Notes under the pieces: model-generated
What the model saw: the letters and a program-made list of their open reading frames with translations, nothing else
What the model was told of the DNA's origin: nothing
Database searches by the model: none
Program-made: the position numbers and the translations under genes
Source: Candidatus Kuenenia stuttgartensis
Lineage (GTDB): Bacteria; Planctomycetota; Brocadiia; Brocadiales; Brocadiaceae
DNA: 32,000 bases
Assembly (NCBI RefSeq): GCF_900232105.1
Contig: NZ_LT934425.1
Location: 3,570,001-3,602,000, forward strand
Direction of reading: 5' to 3'
Part shown: positions 24,471-29,507 of the stretch, piece by piece
How the letters are laid out: each line of letters begins with the position of its first letter
Numbering within the stretch: the first letter of the stretch is position 1

Positions 24471-24505
24471 TGTTTAAGCACCTCATTCATACTGCCGCTA
24501 CGGTA
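24471..24505. repeat. 35-bp direct repeat, copy 1 (orphan copy of the last 12 codons of the larE-like gene)
   Basis: tgtttaagcacctcattcatactgccgctacggta is identical to 28693-28727. The minus strand reads YRSGSMNEVLKQ plus a stop. Confidence 0.9.
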
Positions 24506-24579
24506 CCTTTTAGCTACCTATTCTACACAATAATTATCAATATAAGGGAATCCCAATGAACACGTTAGGTTAAAACTTA

Positions 24580-25959
24580 GCCTCATCCGCAGAATCTGTG
24601 GGTAAGTATTGGTTCCGGCAAATTACCAAGAGTATGATACAAGGCTGTTTGCAGGCATTCCAGAGATTTATAACCATAAGCCTTTCTCATAGTCAGTTTC
24701 GCCTTAAGGTTAAACCCCTCAACCGTACCGGAAGAAAGTCTGCCATCAGCCTTGAACCAGTTGAGAATGAGCTGCTTGTGATTGCGCAACATCTTTGCCA
24801 CTTTTTTCATAGGTTCCAGGTTGGTTTTTAGGGTTCTCGTAATCCAGTTCTCGAGAAACCTGTCTGCATACGCCGGATACTTATACTCCCAAAAACGCTG
24901 AAAATCTTCACGCATTAAATATGCCTTTATTGAACTCAGGTTGATCTTAACTATCTGGCTTAACCGTACCGTTTGCTTTTCTGTCAAGTTCTCAGGCCTT
25001 TTCAACAGTAACCAACGGCTCTTTTCCAAAACATTGTCTGTGCCTTCATCCTTGAGCTTTTTGACCTCTTCCCTCCGTATCTGGTCTATGGCTTCATTGA
25101 ATTTCTTCATGATGTGGAAACGGTCAAGAATATTAAGCGCCTGGGAAGCCTTCTTCGCTATCACCTTCAGGTACGGCGACCACATATCGCTGCAAACGAA
25201 TTTGATTCTCAGACAACGTTCTATACCTAACTCCATGAAAAACTTCCGCAGGGTCTTTGCCTTCCGCTCAGGGCCACTCCATAAAAGCCTTTTGGCATGC
25301 GAATCAAGCTGATATACAAGGGTTAAATACTTGTGGCCACTCCAGACTTGTATCTCGTCTATTCCTATTTCCGTTATATTCTCCAAGTCCCTGTGGGCAA
25401 GGCCGTAGGCAACTACAAACTGCACTGCCCTATACACACTGTCCCAACTGGACTTGAATATCTCGGCTGTCTCTTTCCAACTCAGGCGTTTAGCCCATCG
25501 AGACAGGAATACCTTGTATGTGGTGGTCATCTGCTCCTTACCTTCTGACCAGGGAATTCGCTCTACATGGATTCCGTCCACTGGACAGGCGGCGCGTCGC
25601 GGGGAATATCGGAAAAATACTTGAAACCCCCATAATGGCGGATACTCGTATAACCGGGACGGCTGTGTATCATACCCAGACACTCTCTTCCCACATACTG
25701 AACATTCAGGCTTGGCATTTACCCTCGGCTTTATATCTGCTACTAATGCCTTTCTACCATTTATGACCTCGAAACTGACTGCTTTGTAAACAAATGACTT
25801 GAAATTCTCTACCGTATTTAATAATGTCTTTATCTGCATTGCCTCTCCTTTTGGGTTAAGATGCTTTCTTGATAAAAAACATCTTACTCCCTTTGGGATG
25901 GCAATGCACCTTTTCTCTTACTAATCCTTACTTATTACCCACAGATTCTGCGGACGAGC
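24580..25959 (-). mobile_element. intact ISL3-family insertion sequence (1380 bp)
   Basis: 26-bp IRs match 24/26: gcctcatccgcagaatctgtgggtaa (24580-24605) versus ttacccacagattctgcggacgagcc (25934-25959). An 8-bp TSD aaaactta sits at 24572-24579 and 25960-25967. Confidence 0.9.
24583..25839 (-). CDS. ISL3 family transposase
   Basis: A 418-aa protein with an N-terminal zinc finger (CSVCGKRVSGYD ... CPVDG) and a DDE domain (IGIDEIQVWSGHKYLTLVYQLD). The stop codon lies inside the IR, as seen in other ISL3 elements. Confidence 0.9.
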   Translation of the reverse strand: MQIKTLLNTVENFKSFVYKAVSFEVINGRKALVADIKPRVNAKPECSVCGKRVSGYDTQPSRLYEYPPLWGFQVFFRYSPRRAACPVDGIHVERIPWSEGKEQMTTTYKVFLSRWAKRLSWKETAEIFKSSWDSVYRAVQFVVAYGLAHRDLENITEIGIDEIQVWSGHKYLTLVYQLDSHAKRLLWSGPERKAKTLRKFFMELGIERCLRIKFVCSDMWSPYLKVIAKKASQALNILDRFHIMKKFNEAIDQIRREEVKKLKDEGTDNVLEKSRWLLLKRPENLTEKQTVRLSQIVKINLSSIKAYLMREDFQRFWEYKYPAYADRFLENWITRTLKTNLEPMKKVAKMLRNHKQLILNWFKADGRLSSGTVEGFNLKAKLTMRKAYGYKSLECLQTALYHTLGNLPEPILTHRFCG

Positions 25960-26194
25960 CAAAACTTAAAGGGTTAAAAGACGAATTAATCAAAACAGAC
26001 AGTAACCCTTGAAGCATGAGAAGAAAAAAACATTTAGATTGTGATGAAAAAGACGAAAAGAAAATAAAATGCGAAAAATGAGTTTCAGACGTTCATCCGA
26101 TAAAATCTAGCAAGGCGGAACCACAGATTTCGCAGATTACGCAGACAAAAAGATGCGAATTAATCTTTGGCATTATTCAAACAGGAGGTATAGA

Positions 26195-26470
26195 ATGCAA
26201 GGAACGAGGTATATTCTCAGTGAGTATGTGGAACAAGCTATGGCACAAGCCCTTTACGACAAGCTTGAAGATAGTACATTTTCAGGCCGTATTCCTGTTT
26301 GTAAAGGGGTTGTGGCGTTTGGTACTACATTGCACCAGTGTGAGGACGAATTACGTTCAACACTTGAAGATTGGATTTTGGTTGGGTTGAAATTTGGCCA
26401 TACTTTACCAGTGATTAGAGGTATCGATTTGAATAAGGAGCCAACCCGTGAGCCGATGGACGCCCTGTAA
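26195..26470 (+). CDS. hicB: HicB-family antitoxin
   Basis: RBS aggagg lies 6 nt before ATG 26195. SEYVEQAMAQALYDKLEDSTFSGRIPVCKGVVAFGTTLHQCEDELRSTLEDWILVGLKFGHTLP is typical of HicB-like antitoxins. Confidence 0.8.
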   Translation: MQGTRYILSEYVEQAMAQALYDKLEDSTFSGRIPVCKGVVAFGTTLHQCEDELRSTLEDWILVGLKFGHTLPVIRGIDLNKEPTREPMDAL

Positions 26471-26678
26471 ACGGAGAGATTTTATTCGCCGTTTACGAAA
26501 ACTCGGTTTTGACGGTCCTTTTTCTGGAACCAGACACAAGTTTATTGTCTATCAACAATACTGTCTCACTATTCCGTCTAATGATGAGTATTCAGTGCCT
26601 CAACTTCGTATGATGATAAGGGAAGCGGAAGAAATAATAGGTAGTGAAATTACCGTTGATGAATGGAATCGTTTGTAA
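26448..26678 (+). CDS. hicA: HicA-family mRNA interferase toxin
   Basis: GTG start overlaps hicB by 23 nt, with aaggag 8 nt upstream. KRRDFIRRLRKLGFDGPFSGTRHKFIV is the YcfA/HicA fold signature including the conserved His. Confidence 0.8.
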   Translation: MSRWTPCKRRDFIRRLRKLGFDGPFSGTRHKFIVYQQYCLTIPSNDEYSVPQLRMMIREAEEIIGSEITVDEWNRL

Positions 26679-27915: not shown

Positions 27916-28365
27916 CAAGCAGATTAGGTGGTGCAAGGAACCGGTTGCGGGTTAGGTAACCAATCCATGAAACCTGATTGGAAGTTGTTCCACCTTTTAT
28001 TATGAGTTGTGCCGGTAAAGGAATCGGCGAAAAAGAATATTCCATTCTGATCTGCCCATACCATGAGCCGTGAGGTTTTGGCCGTAGAGCCGAATATTCT
28101 GTGAATAACGATTGGACACTGGTATGGAACCGATGGTTTTCTGGGACAGAAGATAAGTCAGGGGCGGTGAGAAAGTCTTTCACAAAGCCTTGATCCCGAT
28201 GGGTGAATGGTGCGGATGAGAACGATACCAAAACAATTGCGAAATACCACGGGCGTAGATAAACGTGAACGGTATAGTCATTTTCGTAAACAGCAGTAAG
28301 AGCGATTCCGTACTTGGAGGGGTATTCAAAACGTGAAAATGTAGATATTTTTGCGACCGGAGATA
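27916..28365 (+). ncRNA. candidate element-encoded guide RNA (bridge/seek RNA) region in the 3' non-coding tail of the IS110-family element
   Basis: 450 nt has no credible ORF. It contains nested stems, for example ggtgg ... ccacc enclosing ggtt ... aacc and ccaatc ... gattgg at 27926-27995. Segment 28181-28210 resembles the target palindrome arm. No covariance model could be run. Confidence 0.3.
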
Positions 28366-28462
28366 TTTTGTCCTTGACAAAAGCCTTCTAATGAGTGAAC
28401 CCGCCGGGAGCCGTGTAATGTTTACGCTGAATAGTTACATTATTTGAAACATATTTCTATAA

Positions 28463-28653
28463 TATAGTCAAACAAATAAGGTTTTCGAAAAATTTACACA
28501 CCCCCGGCCCCTCTTTTTAGAGGGGAGATAAGAAGTCCCCTCTATCAAGAGGGGATTTAGGGGTGTGTTTGATAATATGCCTAGTCAAATAAATCTGTTT
28601 TTTAGAAAGCCATTTTATCGCCAAATCTCTAAAATCATATTTGTTTGGCTATA
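28463..28653. mobile_element. 191-bp MITE-like element with a cloverleaf-like core
   Basis: TIRs tatagtcaaacaaata (28463-28478) / tatttgtttggctata (28638-28653) match 15/16. In the core, stem acacacccc (28496-28504) / ggggtgtgt (28560-28568) encloses two hairpins cccctct-N4-agagggg (28508-28525, 28537-28554). Confidence 0.6.
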
Positions 28654-28688
28654 AATACCATTGTGAAGGATAATCGAAAAGTATGTAC

Positions 28689-29507
28689 TTATTGTTTAAG
28701 CACCTCATTCATACTGCCGCTACGGTATCCTTCTACATCGAGAGTGACGTATTTGTAACCTATTTCCTTGAATGTATTGATTAATTCAGTTCTTTTGCCG
28801 TTTTGTAATAATTTGAGAAAATCTTCCGGCAGTATCTCAATTCTTGCTATGGTATCGTGATGCCTGACGCGAAATTGTCGCAGCCCAATGCTTCGCAAAT
28901 AATCTTCTGCGGCGGCAACGAGAACTAATTTGTCTTCAGTAATGGCTTCTCCATATGGGAAGCGGGATGACATGCAGGCGTATGACGGTTTATCCCAGTT
29001 TGAGAGAAGGAGGTATTTTGATATTTCGCGTATGTCGGACTTCCTGAATCCGAGGTCTTTTAAAGGGCTGCGTACGCTGAGTTCCTTTGCAGCTTCAAGC
29101 CCGGGCCTGTGTTCACTTGTATCGTCAAAATTGGCGCCATCCACAACATTCTTGAATCCTTGTGCCCTTGCAATGTCTTTCAGTTTTCCAAATAATTCCG
29201 ATTTGCAAAAATAGCACCGGTTCGTGGGATTTTCCGCAAAGCCCTTAATATTAAGTTCGCTGGTATGGATGGTCATATGGGAGATACCAATCTCCTTTGC
29301 TATTTTTGTCGCCTCTTCATATTCAAAGGCGGGATATGTTTCTGAACGGGCAGTGACTGCCATAGCTTTTCCGCCTAAAACATCAAAACAAACTTTCGCG
29401 ACAAGCGAGCTGTCCACTCCTCCTGAAAAAGCAACAACAACACTTTCCAATGCCTCTGCATAGTTTCTTAATTTATTAAGTTTTTCTTTCGTATCCATAC
29501 TACTCAA
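28689..29507 (-). CDS. larE: LarE-like PP-loop ATP pyrophosphatase (TIGR00268-type sulfur transferase)
   Basis: PP-loop AFSGGVDSS. Cysteines occur in NRCYFCK and SYACMSSRFPYG. The last 35 nt are duplicated at 24471-24505. Confidence 0.75.
   Translation of the reverse strand: MSSMDTKEKLNKLRNYAEALESVVVAFSGGVDSSLVAKVCFDVLGGKAMAVTARSETYPAFEYEEATKIAKEIGISHMTIHTSELNIKGFAENPTNRCYFCKSELFGKLKDIARAQGFKNVVDGANFDDTSEHRPGLEAAKELSVRSPLKDLGFRKSDIREISKYLLLSNWDKPSYACMSSRFPYGEAITEDKLVLVAAAEDYLRSIGLRQFRVRHHDTIARIEILPEDFLKLLQNGKRTELINTFKEIGYKYVTLDVEGYRSGSMNEVLKQ

Follow-up and report, generated by a model that had tools for sequence, protein, structure and literature searches.

A hicBA toxin–antitoxin insert at the 3′ end of larE in Kuenenia stuttgartiensis: a probable insertion with long target duplication formed without an element-encoded integrase

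In Candidatus Kuenenia stuttgartiensis, the end of larE occurs twice, on either side of a 4.2-kb interval that holds a predicted toxin–antitoxin (TA) pair among IS elements and small repeats. Integrative islands and prophages that target gene 3′ ends regenerate those ends and leave attL/attR direct repeats. The locus thus raises the question of whether the interval is what remains of such an island, as an initial annotation made from the sequence alone had proposed, or whether the duplication arose in another way. Our comparisons with related genomes separate an original insert from later additions, and the original insert is best seen as a further example of an integrase-free insertion type that is already known, and not as a decayed genomic island.

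The duplicated larE end and the interval between its copies

The window is the whole 32,000-bp stretch of the chromosome that was analysed, and all coordinates refer to it unless stated otherwise. The features at and around the insertion site are as follows.

21791–24397, plus strand: asmA-like gene, which borders the insertion site on the left (PF05170 AsmA, 6.3e-25; PF05359 DUF748)
24405–24465, minus strand: hairpin and T-run, probable original larE terminator, now separated from larE (predicted fold at −12.7 kcal/mol; the z-score of −1.5 is weak)
24467–24505: left (orphan) copy of the target duplication, 39 bp, of which the 35 bases 24471–24505 are exact; its minus strand encodes YRSGSMNEVLKQ and a stop
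24506–24579, plus strand: left arm of the original insert, unique DNA leading into the decayed tail of a CarboxypepD_reg-like gene
24580–25960, minus strand: ISL3-family IS, transposase at 24583–25839 (PF01610, 5.6e-75)
25969–26194, plus strand: remainder of the left arm, the decayed gene tail with three in-frame stops, and the ribosome-binding site of hicB
26195–26470, plus strand: hicB-type antitoxin gene, 91 aa (PF21748 UPF0150-like, 2.3e-27)
26448–26678, plus strand: hicA-like candidate toxin gene, 76 aa, its first 23 nt shared with hicB (PF07927, below threshold)
26749–26796: left half of a REPIN-like palindromic (inverted) repeat, split by the IS110 element
26797–28395, plus strand: IS110-family IS of about 1602 bp, its ends ambiguous by 3 bp, in the hairpin loop; transposase at 26863–27915 (NF033542, 170.8 bits)
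28396–28439: right half of the REPIN-like repeat
28463–28653: MITE of 191 bp with 26-nt terminal inverted repeats, in all sister strains
28654–28688: right arm of the original insert, unique DNA
28689–28727: right copy of the target duplication, the functional larE 3′ end with its stop codon
28689–29498, minus strand: larE, intact, for the ATP-dependent sacrificial sulfur transferase (TIGR00268 score 326.7 bits, cut-off 150)

The perfect 35-bp repeat reported by the initial annotation is present at 24471–24505 and 28693–28727. With up to three mismatches allowed, these are its only two copies in the window and in the whole 4,406,153-bp genome, and zero matches would be expected by chance; it is therefore not a dispersed repeat. 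The repeat extends to 39 bp (24467–24505 and 28689–28727, 38 of 39 positions identical), so that both copies take in the complement of the TAA stop codon. The copies differ only in a C/T exchange at the wobble position of the final Gln codon (CAG versus CAA). A BLAST alignment of the two copies reaches 58 bp at 89.7% identity; in free local alignments, similarity beyond the 39 bp is not above shuffled controls. As first described, larE truly ends in the right copy; its protein is 96% identical to that of the related genome G002 and ends in ...YRSGSMNEVLKQ, and the left copy is an orphan that still codes for the same 12 last residues and the stop. The minus-strand hairpin and T-run next to the orphan (about 24405–24465) plausibly represent the original larE terminator. 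A homologue lies directly after larE, and is kept there, in lineages whose insertion site is empty.

The two IS elements have the marks of their families. The ISL3 element combines a DDE_Tnp_ISL3 transposase and terminal inverted repeats with an 8-bp duplication, AAAACTTA (24572–24579 and 25961–25968), the last 8 bp of the left arm having served as its target, and it has seven near-identical genomic copies. The IS110-family element, with about eight genomic copies, encodes a DEDD transposase, lacks a target duplication and sits in a specific, repeated target. That target is the REPIN-like repeat, the right half of which has more than 40 genomic copies and the two halves of which are contiguous in sister strains. 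The MITE, present in more than 20 copies in the genome, probably made a TA dinucleotide target duplication of its own. No match to the left arm at 24506–24579 turns up elsewhere in this genome or among 89 genomes from the order, and a dispersed motif resembling an ISL3 inverted repeat lies within the left arm at 26117–26151.

The hicB product scores 95.1 bits against PF21748 (cut-off 27.3), and many assemblies have a called gene whose product is exactly the same. The HicA-like open reading frame aligns with positions 2–56 of the 58 in the HicA_toxin profile PF07927 at 18.2 bits, below the cut-off of 27 (E = 0.0027), and it has no NCBIfam match and no PDB sequence match. Similarly to type II HicAB systems, a gene for a UPF0150/HicB-fold antitoxin overlaps a small basic reading frame with a weak HicA match over the full profile. 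In contrast to them, the antitoxin gene comes first in the operon and the HicA match stays below the Pfam gathering score, which makes its product a candidate toxin only. We refer to the pair as a putative HicAB-type TA module. Pfam and NCBIfam scans of all open reading frames in the block agree with the initial annotation in finding no tyrosine or serine recombinase between the repeats, and there is none in the sister strains.

Empty sites, sister strains and the original insert

A search for an unoccupied junction, which had been suggested as a check, found asmA next to larE, with the repeat present once, in G002 (about 95% nucleotide identity), G003, L079, L080, L081–L083 and L084, that is, in at least six related Kuenenia lineages. 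The asmA-like gene is collinear with those of G002 and G003 as far as the repeat. Comparison with these single-copy junctions indicates that the 39-bp repeat is a true target duplication, and bears out the view that it is the scar of an insertion in which the larE 3′ end was regenerated. Among the relatives examined, a limited sample, no other insert occurs at the end of larE; G001 has only a synteny break there, with housekeeping genes.

Four sister-strain assemblies (L046–L049, one of them a complete 4.33-Mb chromosome) have flanks that are 99.9–100% identical to those of the window. In these strains the 35-mer lies at 5666 and 6897 with neither ISL3 nor IS110 between its copies, hicB and hicA are the only genes called between asmA and larE, and the left arm at 24506–24579 is contiguous with 25969 onward. 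The spacing of 1231 bp therefore gives an original insert of about 1.2 kb, which comprises the decayed gene tail, hicB, the hicA-like gene, the REPIN-like hairpin and the MITE, the last two being non-coding. The 4.2-kb block is thus composite, not the single element of the initial annotation. In metagenomes, the ISL3-less joint is found at full depth in all four runs and the IS110-less joint (26793 to 28396) in two of the four, so that IS110 is polymorphic among populations. By these comparisons the ISL3 element is a later, strain-specific insertion, and the IS110-family element likewise arrived after the hicBA cassette. The assembled contigs of the four runs contain no repeat-to-repeat joint, and neither a within-species empty allele nor a circular or excised form is seen in the sampled contigs, which break at the 35-mer.

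Foreign origin of the cassette and its siblings in the genome

A unit of about 784 bp with hicBA (5775–6558 in the sister strain) is 88–93% identical to G052 and to contigs L065–L072, all from another genus; the orthologous larE/nadA of that genus (G008) are just about 73% identical. Sequence comparisons identify the left arm as the decayed tail of a CarboxypepD_reg-like gene, and in L065 hicBA is bracketed by two copies of the same gene tail that are 92% alike. These similarities indicate that the hicBA fragment came from a cassette spot in another genus of the same family, and that it carries debris of its former chromosomal neighbourhood, not the ends of an element. No donor was found for the outer arms of 74 bp and about 60 bp.

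Integron cassettes and CALINs (integrase-less attC clusters) often carry TA cassettes. The donor-type locus L065 is similar in that small, promoter-carrying TA units stand in a row, separated by repeats. Unlike attC-type sites, these repeats appear to be duplicated tails of a neighbouring gene and are locus-specific, and no integron integrase lies nearby.

The larE insert has siblings in its own genome. A UPF0175/DUF3368 cassette is bounded by a 47-bp target duplication, with empty sites in G002 and G003, and a DUF6883/DUF4926 cassette by one of 233 bp, with an empty site in G003 and an occupied one in G002; both lie at unrelated targets and are without a recombinase. More broadly, the genome has 16 isolated, unique direct-repeat pairs, of which at least five surround a predicted TA pair and three others a lone TA-type or defence gene. 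Target duplications of such different length at unrelated sites do not fit one site-specific recombinase.

How the fragment was joined at larE

Insertion with long target duplication (LTD) has been described for restriction–modification (RM) genes (2000, Gene 259:99; Furuta, Abe and Kobayashi 2010, PMC2853133). The repeats there exceed 30 bp, have no further copies in the genome and often lie across a stop or start codon, and there is no mobility gene (PMC2853133). The larE locus has the same geometry. Its repeats are longer than 30 bp and unique in the genome, they are single-copy at the relative's empty site with collinear flanks, and they span the stop codon, so that the neighbouring gene is intact. 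The small original insert lacks both integrase and transposase, its cargo is a putative post-segregational-killing module, and repeat length varies by locus. It differs from the RM cases in that the cargo is a TA pair with a predicted RNase toxin. The authors suggest a mechanism that relies on the cargo to make double-strand breaks in DNA (PMC2853133), which would not apply here. The larE locus also differs in its anammox planctomycete host, in the relic of a previous target within the insert and in the two IS elements that were inserted later. The screen of Furuta et al. was for RM cargo, a condition that defined their search and not the geometry of the event; here the cargo is hicB plus a hicA-like gene.

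We consider it probable that the hicBA insert arose as an LTD insertion with TA cargo, formed without an element-encoded integrase. Comparison shows that a foreign fragment of about 0.95–1.2 kb entered the short spacer between the convergent asmA and larE in the K. stuttgartiensis lineage, after its split from the closest sister species. The last 39 bp of larE (12 codons and the stop) were duplicated on both sides, leaving larE intact and the orphan beside the old terminator. The fragment brought the hicB/hicA-like operon and the decayed tail of the gene formerly upstream, with no recombinase gene. The REPIN-like hairpin and the MITE, small repeats of the genome's own that lie inside the insert in every strain seen, arrived with the fragment or after it. 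Later insertion of ISL3, with its 8-bp duplication, and of IS110, in the hairpin loop, increased the spacing in this strain from 1231 to 4222 bp. Joining may have been the work of host DNA repair or recombination, either through capture at a break with long staggered ends and subsequent fill-in, or through recombination between an earlier pair of repeats, which would release a circle that then re-inserts. Recombination between the present repeats would delete the cassette; we propose that it persists by addiction, as a stable toxin would be set free once hicBA is lost.

An unlikely alternative is homology-driven capture, in which the incoming DNA already carried a diverged larE end and was joined by a RecA-type single crossover (Campbell) or by one homologous and one illegitimate joint. 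The source would be another Kuenenia lineage or a circle excised there, and the repeat would be shared homology and not a product of fill-in. The site of the lone mismatch is polymorphic among lineages: the native left copy has C, as do L079 and L080, and the right copy has T, as does G002. Together with the flank on its inner side, the right copy matches other lineages (G002, L079) and differs from the native left copy (TTAT versus TTAC, GTATG versus GTCTG). The last ~15 nt of the right arm weakly resemble the native larE 3′ UTR, a likeness that is not significant against shuffles. This likeness and the mismatch site would fit incoming DNA that already had a homologous larE end (Campbell-type or homology-facilitated) over duplication in situ. 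In addition, the 490 bp of the larE 3′ end beside the insert are 7.7% diverged from G002, versus 2.2% further on, with a change point at about 29182 that none of 500 permutations reaches. However, the diverged larE tract is partly common to L079, which has an empty site, and divergence in asmA is equally patchy, which points to general mosaicism and not to co-import. Moreover, similarity outside the 39 bp does not rise above shuffles, and homology-driven capture only shifts the origin of the first larE-end copy to another genome, for which no such donor was found.

We regard as quite improbable the reading closest to that of the initial annotation, in which a circular, site-specific element with the larE 3′ end in its attP integrated and later lost its own tyrosine or serine recombinase along with most of its cargo. 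The geometry is identical to that of attL/attR islands: a duplicated, regenerated target 3′ end bounds the insert, the displaced original end lies at its far side, and a perfect 35-bp core has weaker similarity alongside. The lone mismatch at a lineage-polymorphic site is also what one would expect if one repeat end came from outside. Unlike such islands, the locus has no tyrosine or serine recombinase gene inside or beside it in any form seen, its smallest form measures 1.2 kb, which leaves no room for one, and the hicBA segment runs out into chromosomal debris from where it used to lie. In the limited sample of relatives, the site is not seen to be used by related elements, and the sibling cassettes, with their 47-bp and 233-bp duplications, argue against this reading as well. 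Nothing points to a lost integrase, and of the initial interpretation the scar and the empty site stand, whereas the single 4.2-kb element and the lost integrase do not. As a caveat to the LTD reading, the deletion of an integrase could predate the divergence of the sampled strains.

A decayed tandem duplication or paralogue of larE, with the orphan as its last piece, would account for the 12 larE residues and stop still encoded there, and is very improbable. The reading frame stops 5 codons upstream of the repeat, the adjoining 160 bp score below the shuffle mean in local alignment to larE, and this DNA is homologous to another gene's tail and to the foreign hicBA locus; together with the empty sites, the shuffle-level alignment led us to reject this origin, in line with the initial annotation's att-type reading. 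IS-mediated rearrangement, in which ISL3 or IS110 delivered the block or made the duplication, is suggested by the two IS elements and the MITE between the repeats, and is refuted by sister strains that keep the repeat and hicBA with neither IS, while ISL3 has a clean 8-bp duplication of its own and the hairpin that houses IS110 is intact in those strains.

The LTD reading of the larE insert may be extended, tentatively and with more doubt than confidence, to a recombinase-free class of mobile TA cassettes that are bounded by long target duplications and have a life cycle. Recombination between the repeats would release a circle that retains a single copy of the former target; the circle, or a fragment, would enter a new site, even in another genus, and make a new duplication there; and addiction would select against loss. 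If this is true, the Kuenenia insert would be a caught example, with a decayed gene tail like that bracketing hicBA at the donor-type locus, and the property common to RM and TA cargoes would be post-segregational killing, not DNA cleavage.

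A duplicated larE end around a composite block

The 35-bp sequence at the 3′ end of larE occurs at 24471-24505 and 28693-28727. Even when as many as three mismatches are allowed, neither the window nor the whole 4,406,153-bp single-contig genome contains a third copy, a possibility that the initial annotation had left to be checked. With its neighbouring bases the repeat measures 39 bp (24467-24505 and 28689-28727); its copies differ at one base only, the wobble position of the final Gln codon (C versus T), and both contain the complement of the TAA stop. BLAST extends the repeat to 58 bp at 89.7%; in free local alignment of the flanks, similarity beyond 39 bp does not rise above shuffled controls. 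The right copy is the end of a 269-272-aa LarE (TIGR00268, 326.7 bits), while the left copy is an orphan adjoining a hairpin with a T-run (-12.7 kcal/mol, z -1.5), and in relatives a homologous hairpin lies directly behind larE. The repeats enclose an ISL3 transposase, a HicB-type antitoxin, a 76-aa HicA-like ORF, an IS110-family transposase and a MITE. The HicA-like ORF falls under the Pfam threshold (18.2 bits versus a cut-off of 27), and a PDB sequence search for its HicA identity gave no match. Pfam and NCBIfam profile searches found no tyrosine or serine recombinase within the block. The earlier description of repeat coordinates, orphan copy, hairpin, content and missing recombinase was correct in every point.

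Features between the repeat copies (window coordinates)
24555-24579 and 25969-26090: 3′ tail of a CarboxypepD_reg-like gene
24580-25960: ISL3 element, with an 8-bp duplication AAAACTTA at 24572-24579 and 25961-25968; seven copies in the genome
26749-26796 and 28396-28439: REPIN-like palindromic repeat; more than 40 genomic copies
26797-28395: IS110-family element, ~1602 bp, ends ambiguous by 3 bp, sitting in the REPIN-like hairpin loop
28463-28653: MITE, 191 bp; more than 20 copies, present in all strains

The IS boundaries follow from comparison with IS-free sister strains: an exact look-up of the HicB protein yielded four same-species assemblies, among them a complete chromosome of 4.33 Mb, and all four match the window at 99.9-100% identity in the flanks. 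In sister-strain contig coordinates the 35-mer lies at 5666 and 6897, a spacing of 1231 bp; hicB and hicA are the only genes called between asmA and larE, and ISL3 and IS110 are both absent. Contigs from four public runs were also compared: every run has the ISL3-less joint at full local depth, and two of the four have the IS110-less joint. The sequence to be explained therefore shrinks to ~1.2 kb. Judged from these assemblies, both ISs are shown to have inserted later than the cassette, whose original form appears small and integrase-free. The 4.2-kb block had been read as one element, and this reading gives way to the 1.2-kb form. A search for excision in the contigs of these four runs, whose unitigs end at the 35-mer, gave no joint between the two repeat copies.

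The REPIN-like doublet is the target of the IS110-family element, and the related lineages L079 and L081 have a Y1_Tnp gene of the RAYT type a few kb past nadA. A ~30-nt motif (CCACAGATTTCGCAGATTACGCAGA...) at 26117-26151 resembles an ISL3 terminal inverted repeat; it recurs several times in this genome and many times in 43 of the 44 family genomes searched, and may represent the end of a solo IS or of a MITE, or else a regulatory motif.

Empty sites and the source of the cassette

The unoccupied larE-asmA junction that the initial annotation suggested looking for exists in relatives. In the closest sister species (G002, ~95% nucleotide identity), 21084-24512 and 28679-30714 of the window map to adjoining, overlapping positions, and asmA and larE are convergent neighbours with a single 35-mer copy. 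The same single-copy junction is seen in a second relative (G003), in the metagenomic Kuenenia lineages L079, L080 and L081-83, and in lineage L084, giving empty sites in at least six lineages. In another related genome (G001, contig C8, L029, ~11240) the larE stop codon is the exact point at which synteny with asmA is lost; asmA is on another contig, and the stop is followed by APS kinase, MsrA and cytochrome P460 genes, which are housekeeping genes and no island. Comparison with these lineages shows the insertion, the duplication and the empty sites, and the 39-bp repeat is a target duplication.

Sister-strain positions 5775-6558, comprising a gene-tail remnant, hicB, hicA and 70 bp, are 88-93% identical to a genome of another genus of the family (G052) and to metagenome contigs L065-L072, whereas the orthologous larE and nadA of that genus reach only ~73% identity. 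This difference argues for horizontal transfer, and the comparison shows the hicBA cassette to be of foreign origin. The G052 and L065-L072 loci have a conserved DUF4159-GATase1_like pair downstream of hicBA, whereas to the left the content varies strongly and includes many toxin-antitoxin (TA) genes. Across L065-L072 and locus L035, hicBA stands beside an ever-changing TA/defence set (Polbeta/HepT, PemK, AF2212-like, DUF7718), and the spot upstream of the pair looks like a cassette hot spot.

The Kuenenia DNA left of hicB is the decayed CarboxypepD_reg-like tail, with three in-frame stops; the transferred unit therefore carries debris of a former chromosomal neighbourhood, and it lacks the defined ends of an integrative element. 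In L065 hicBA stands between two tail copies with 92% identity, and there is a third copy 2.7 kb upstream (1965-2035, 4720-4790 and 5594-5664), which suggests that insertions occurred repeatedly behind the same gene. The tail acts as a dispersed repeat in several family genomes, and forms a direct repeat around hicBA in L065.

For the outer arms of the insert, 74 bp at the left end and ~60 bp at the right, neither the own genome nor 89 genomes of the order gave a match. Exact searches of metagenome and genome collections with a left-arm 30-mer were also negative, and a 28-mer of the right arm matches only contigs L094 and L095. Both were rejected as donors: L094 is chimeric, the rest of the contig having 65% GC and an IF-2 43% identical to the Kuenenia protein, and L095 looks chimeric, its partner changing at the multi-copy MITE. 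Contig L078, from the same set of assemblies, also looks chimeric, with a mixed larE. In all three (L078, L094 and L095; JAANMV/JAANMT/JAANMW), which were discarded, unrelated DNA adjoins larE sequence that is 99.6-100% identical to that of K. stuttgartiensis, and the mixed LarE protein record P0161 stems from one of them.

Mode of insertion

Insertions with long target duplications were described for restriction-modification genes by Furuta, Abe and Kobayashi (PMC2853133), after Nobusato et al. Their repeats exceed 30 bp, are unique in the genome, are single-copy at the relative's empty site and often span a start or stop codon, with no other mobile element; one example is a 46-bp repeat overlapping the 3′ end of a Haemophilus gene (PMC2853133). 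Their mechanism was suggested to involve something that restriction systems share, for instance double-strand breakage, and the proposed life cycle runs from insertion through amplification via the repeats to release (PMC2853133). The larE-end insert agrees with this class in all of its geometry and differs only in cargo, a hicBA-type TA pair in place of restriction-modification genes. HicA-type toxins are expected to act on RNA, so TA cargo would shift the common denominator to post-segregational killing or host repair. We lean, with modest confidence, towards a recombinase-free insertion of the long-target-duplication type, in which host functions would join the cassette and addiction may retain it.

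Capture driven by homology is the less likely course, though it has points in its favour: the sole mismatch between the repeat copies falls at a site polymorphic among lineages, with a non-native allele in the right copy, and ~15 nt beside that copy weakly resemble the native 3′ UTR. The 3′ 490 bp of larE are also 7.7% diverged from G002 against 2.2% beyond, with a change point at ~29182 reached by none of 500 permutations. However, part of this tract is common to L079, which has an empty site, and asmA is equally patchy; the divergence reflects general mosaicism, and we therefore reject the tract as evidence for homology-anchored import. Over 21791-30472, divergence from G002, L079, L080 and L081 is strongly patchy (0-16% in 150-bp windows) and the nearest relative switches from tract to tract. 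Such patchiness indicates that homologous exchange is frequent among Kuenenia lineages.

An att-type island that decayed and lost its integrase is improbable, and nothing supports the lost integrase. A decayed larE paralogue as source of the orphan copy is very hard to credit, being rejected by the shuffled local alignments. The IS-mediated rearrangement offered earlier as an alternative has next to no probability left: sister strains have repeat and hicBA with neither IS, and together with the IS-less joints in the runs this refutes such an origin of the repeat.

The insertion with a duplicated larE end proposed in the initial annotation thus stands, but its degraded integrative island is unsupported. 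The larE-end insert is probably not such an island; it adds a clear, well-dated case to a type of insertion already known, and contains two ISs that came later.

Recurrence in the genome and spread of TA cassettes

Across the whole genome, a scan for exact direct repeats that are isolated and unique, measure at least 28 bp and lie 0.3-12 kb apart returned 16 pairs (L085-L093). At least five of the 16 enclose a predicted TA pair and three more a lone TA-type or defence gene; half of the pairs thus enclose such genes. Their cargo includes RelB/ParE (72 bp), lone Zeta-toxin-like and DUF433 genes, Schlafen/AlbA_2 and a ResIII helicase. Besides the larE-end locus, three pairs surround a TA pair with repeats whose edges are sharp, and empty sites were confirmed for two of these three. 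The site of a UPF0175/DUF3368 cassette with a 47-bp repeat was verified as empty in G002 and G003, and that of a DUF6883/DUF4926 cassette with a 233-bp repeat as empty in G003 and occupied in G002. Clean empty sites for L085, L088, L090 and L093 were not found in G001-G003. Repeats of 39, 47 and 233 bp at unrelated targets are ill-suited to one site-specific recombinase or a fixed-stagger transposase.

At L093 (G000:C1:2777763-2779588) a multi-copy DDE_Tnp_1 IS has on both sides a sharply bounded direct repeat of 38 bp, a duplication of a gene's first 12 codons that far exceeds the usual IS target duplication in length; G002 gave no clean empty site for it.

Little is understood of how chromosomal TA cassettes that have no transposase or integrase spread, and we found no description of this geometry for them in the open-access literature. 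The locus provides a clean, datable series, from empty sites through a 1.2-kb occupied form across one species to later ISs in one strain, together with a locus of donor type in another genus, at which duplicated gene tails stand on either side of the same cassette. The long-target-duplication geometry is thereby extended from restriction-modification genes to TA cargo. As the toxin is not expected to cut DNA, the common cause would more likely be addiction or host repair than breaks made by the cargo.
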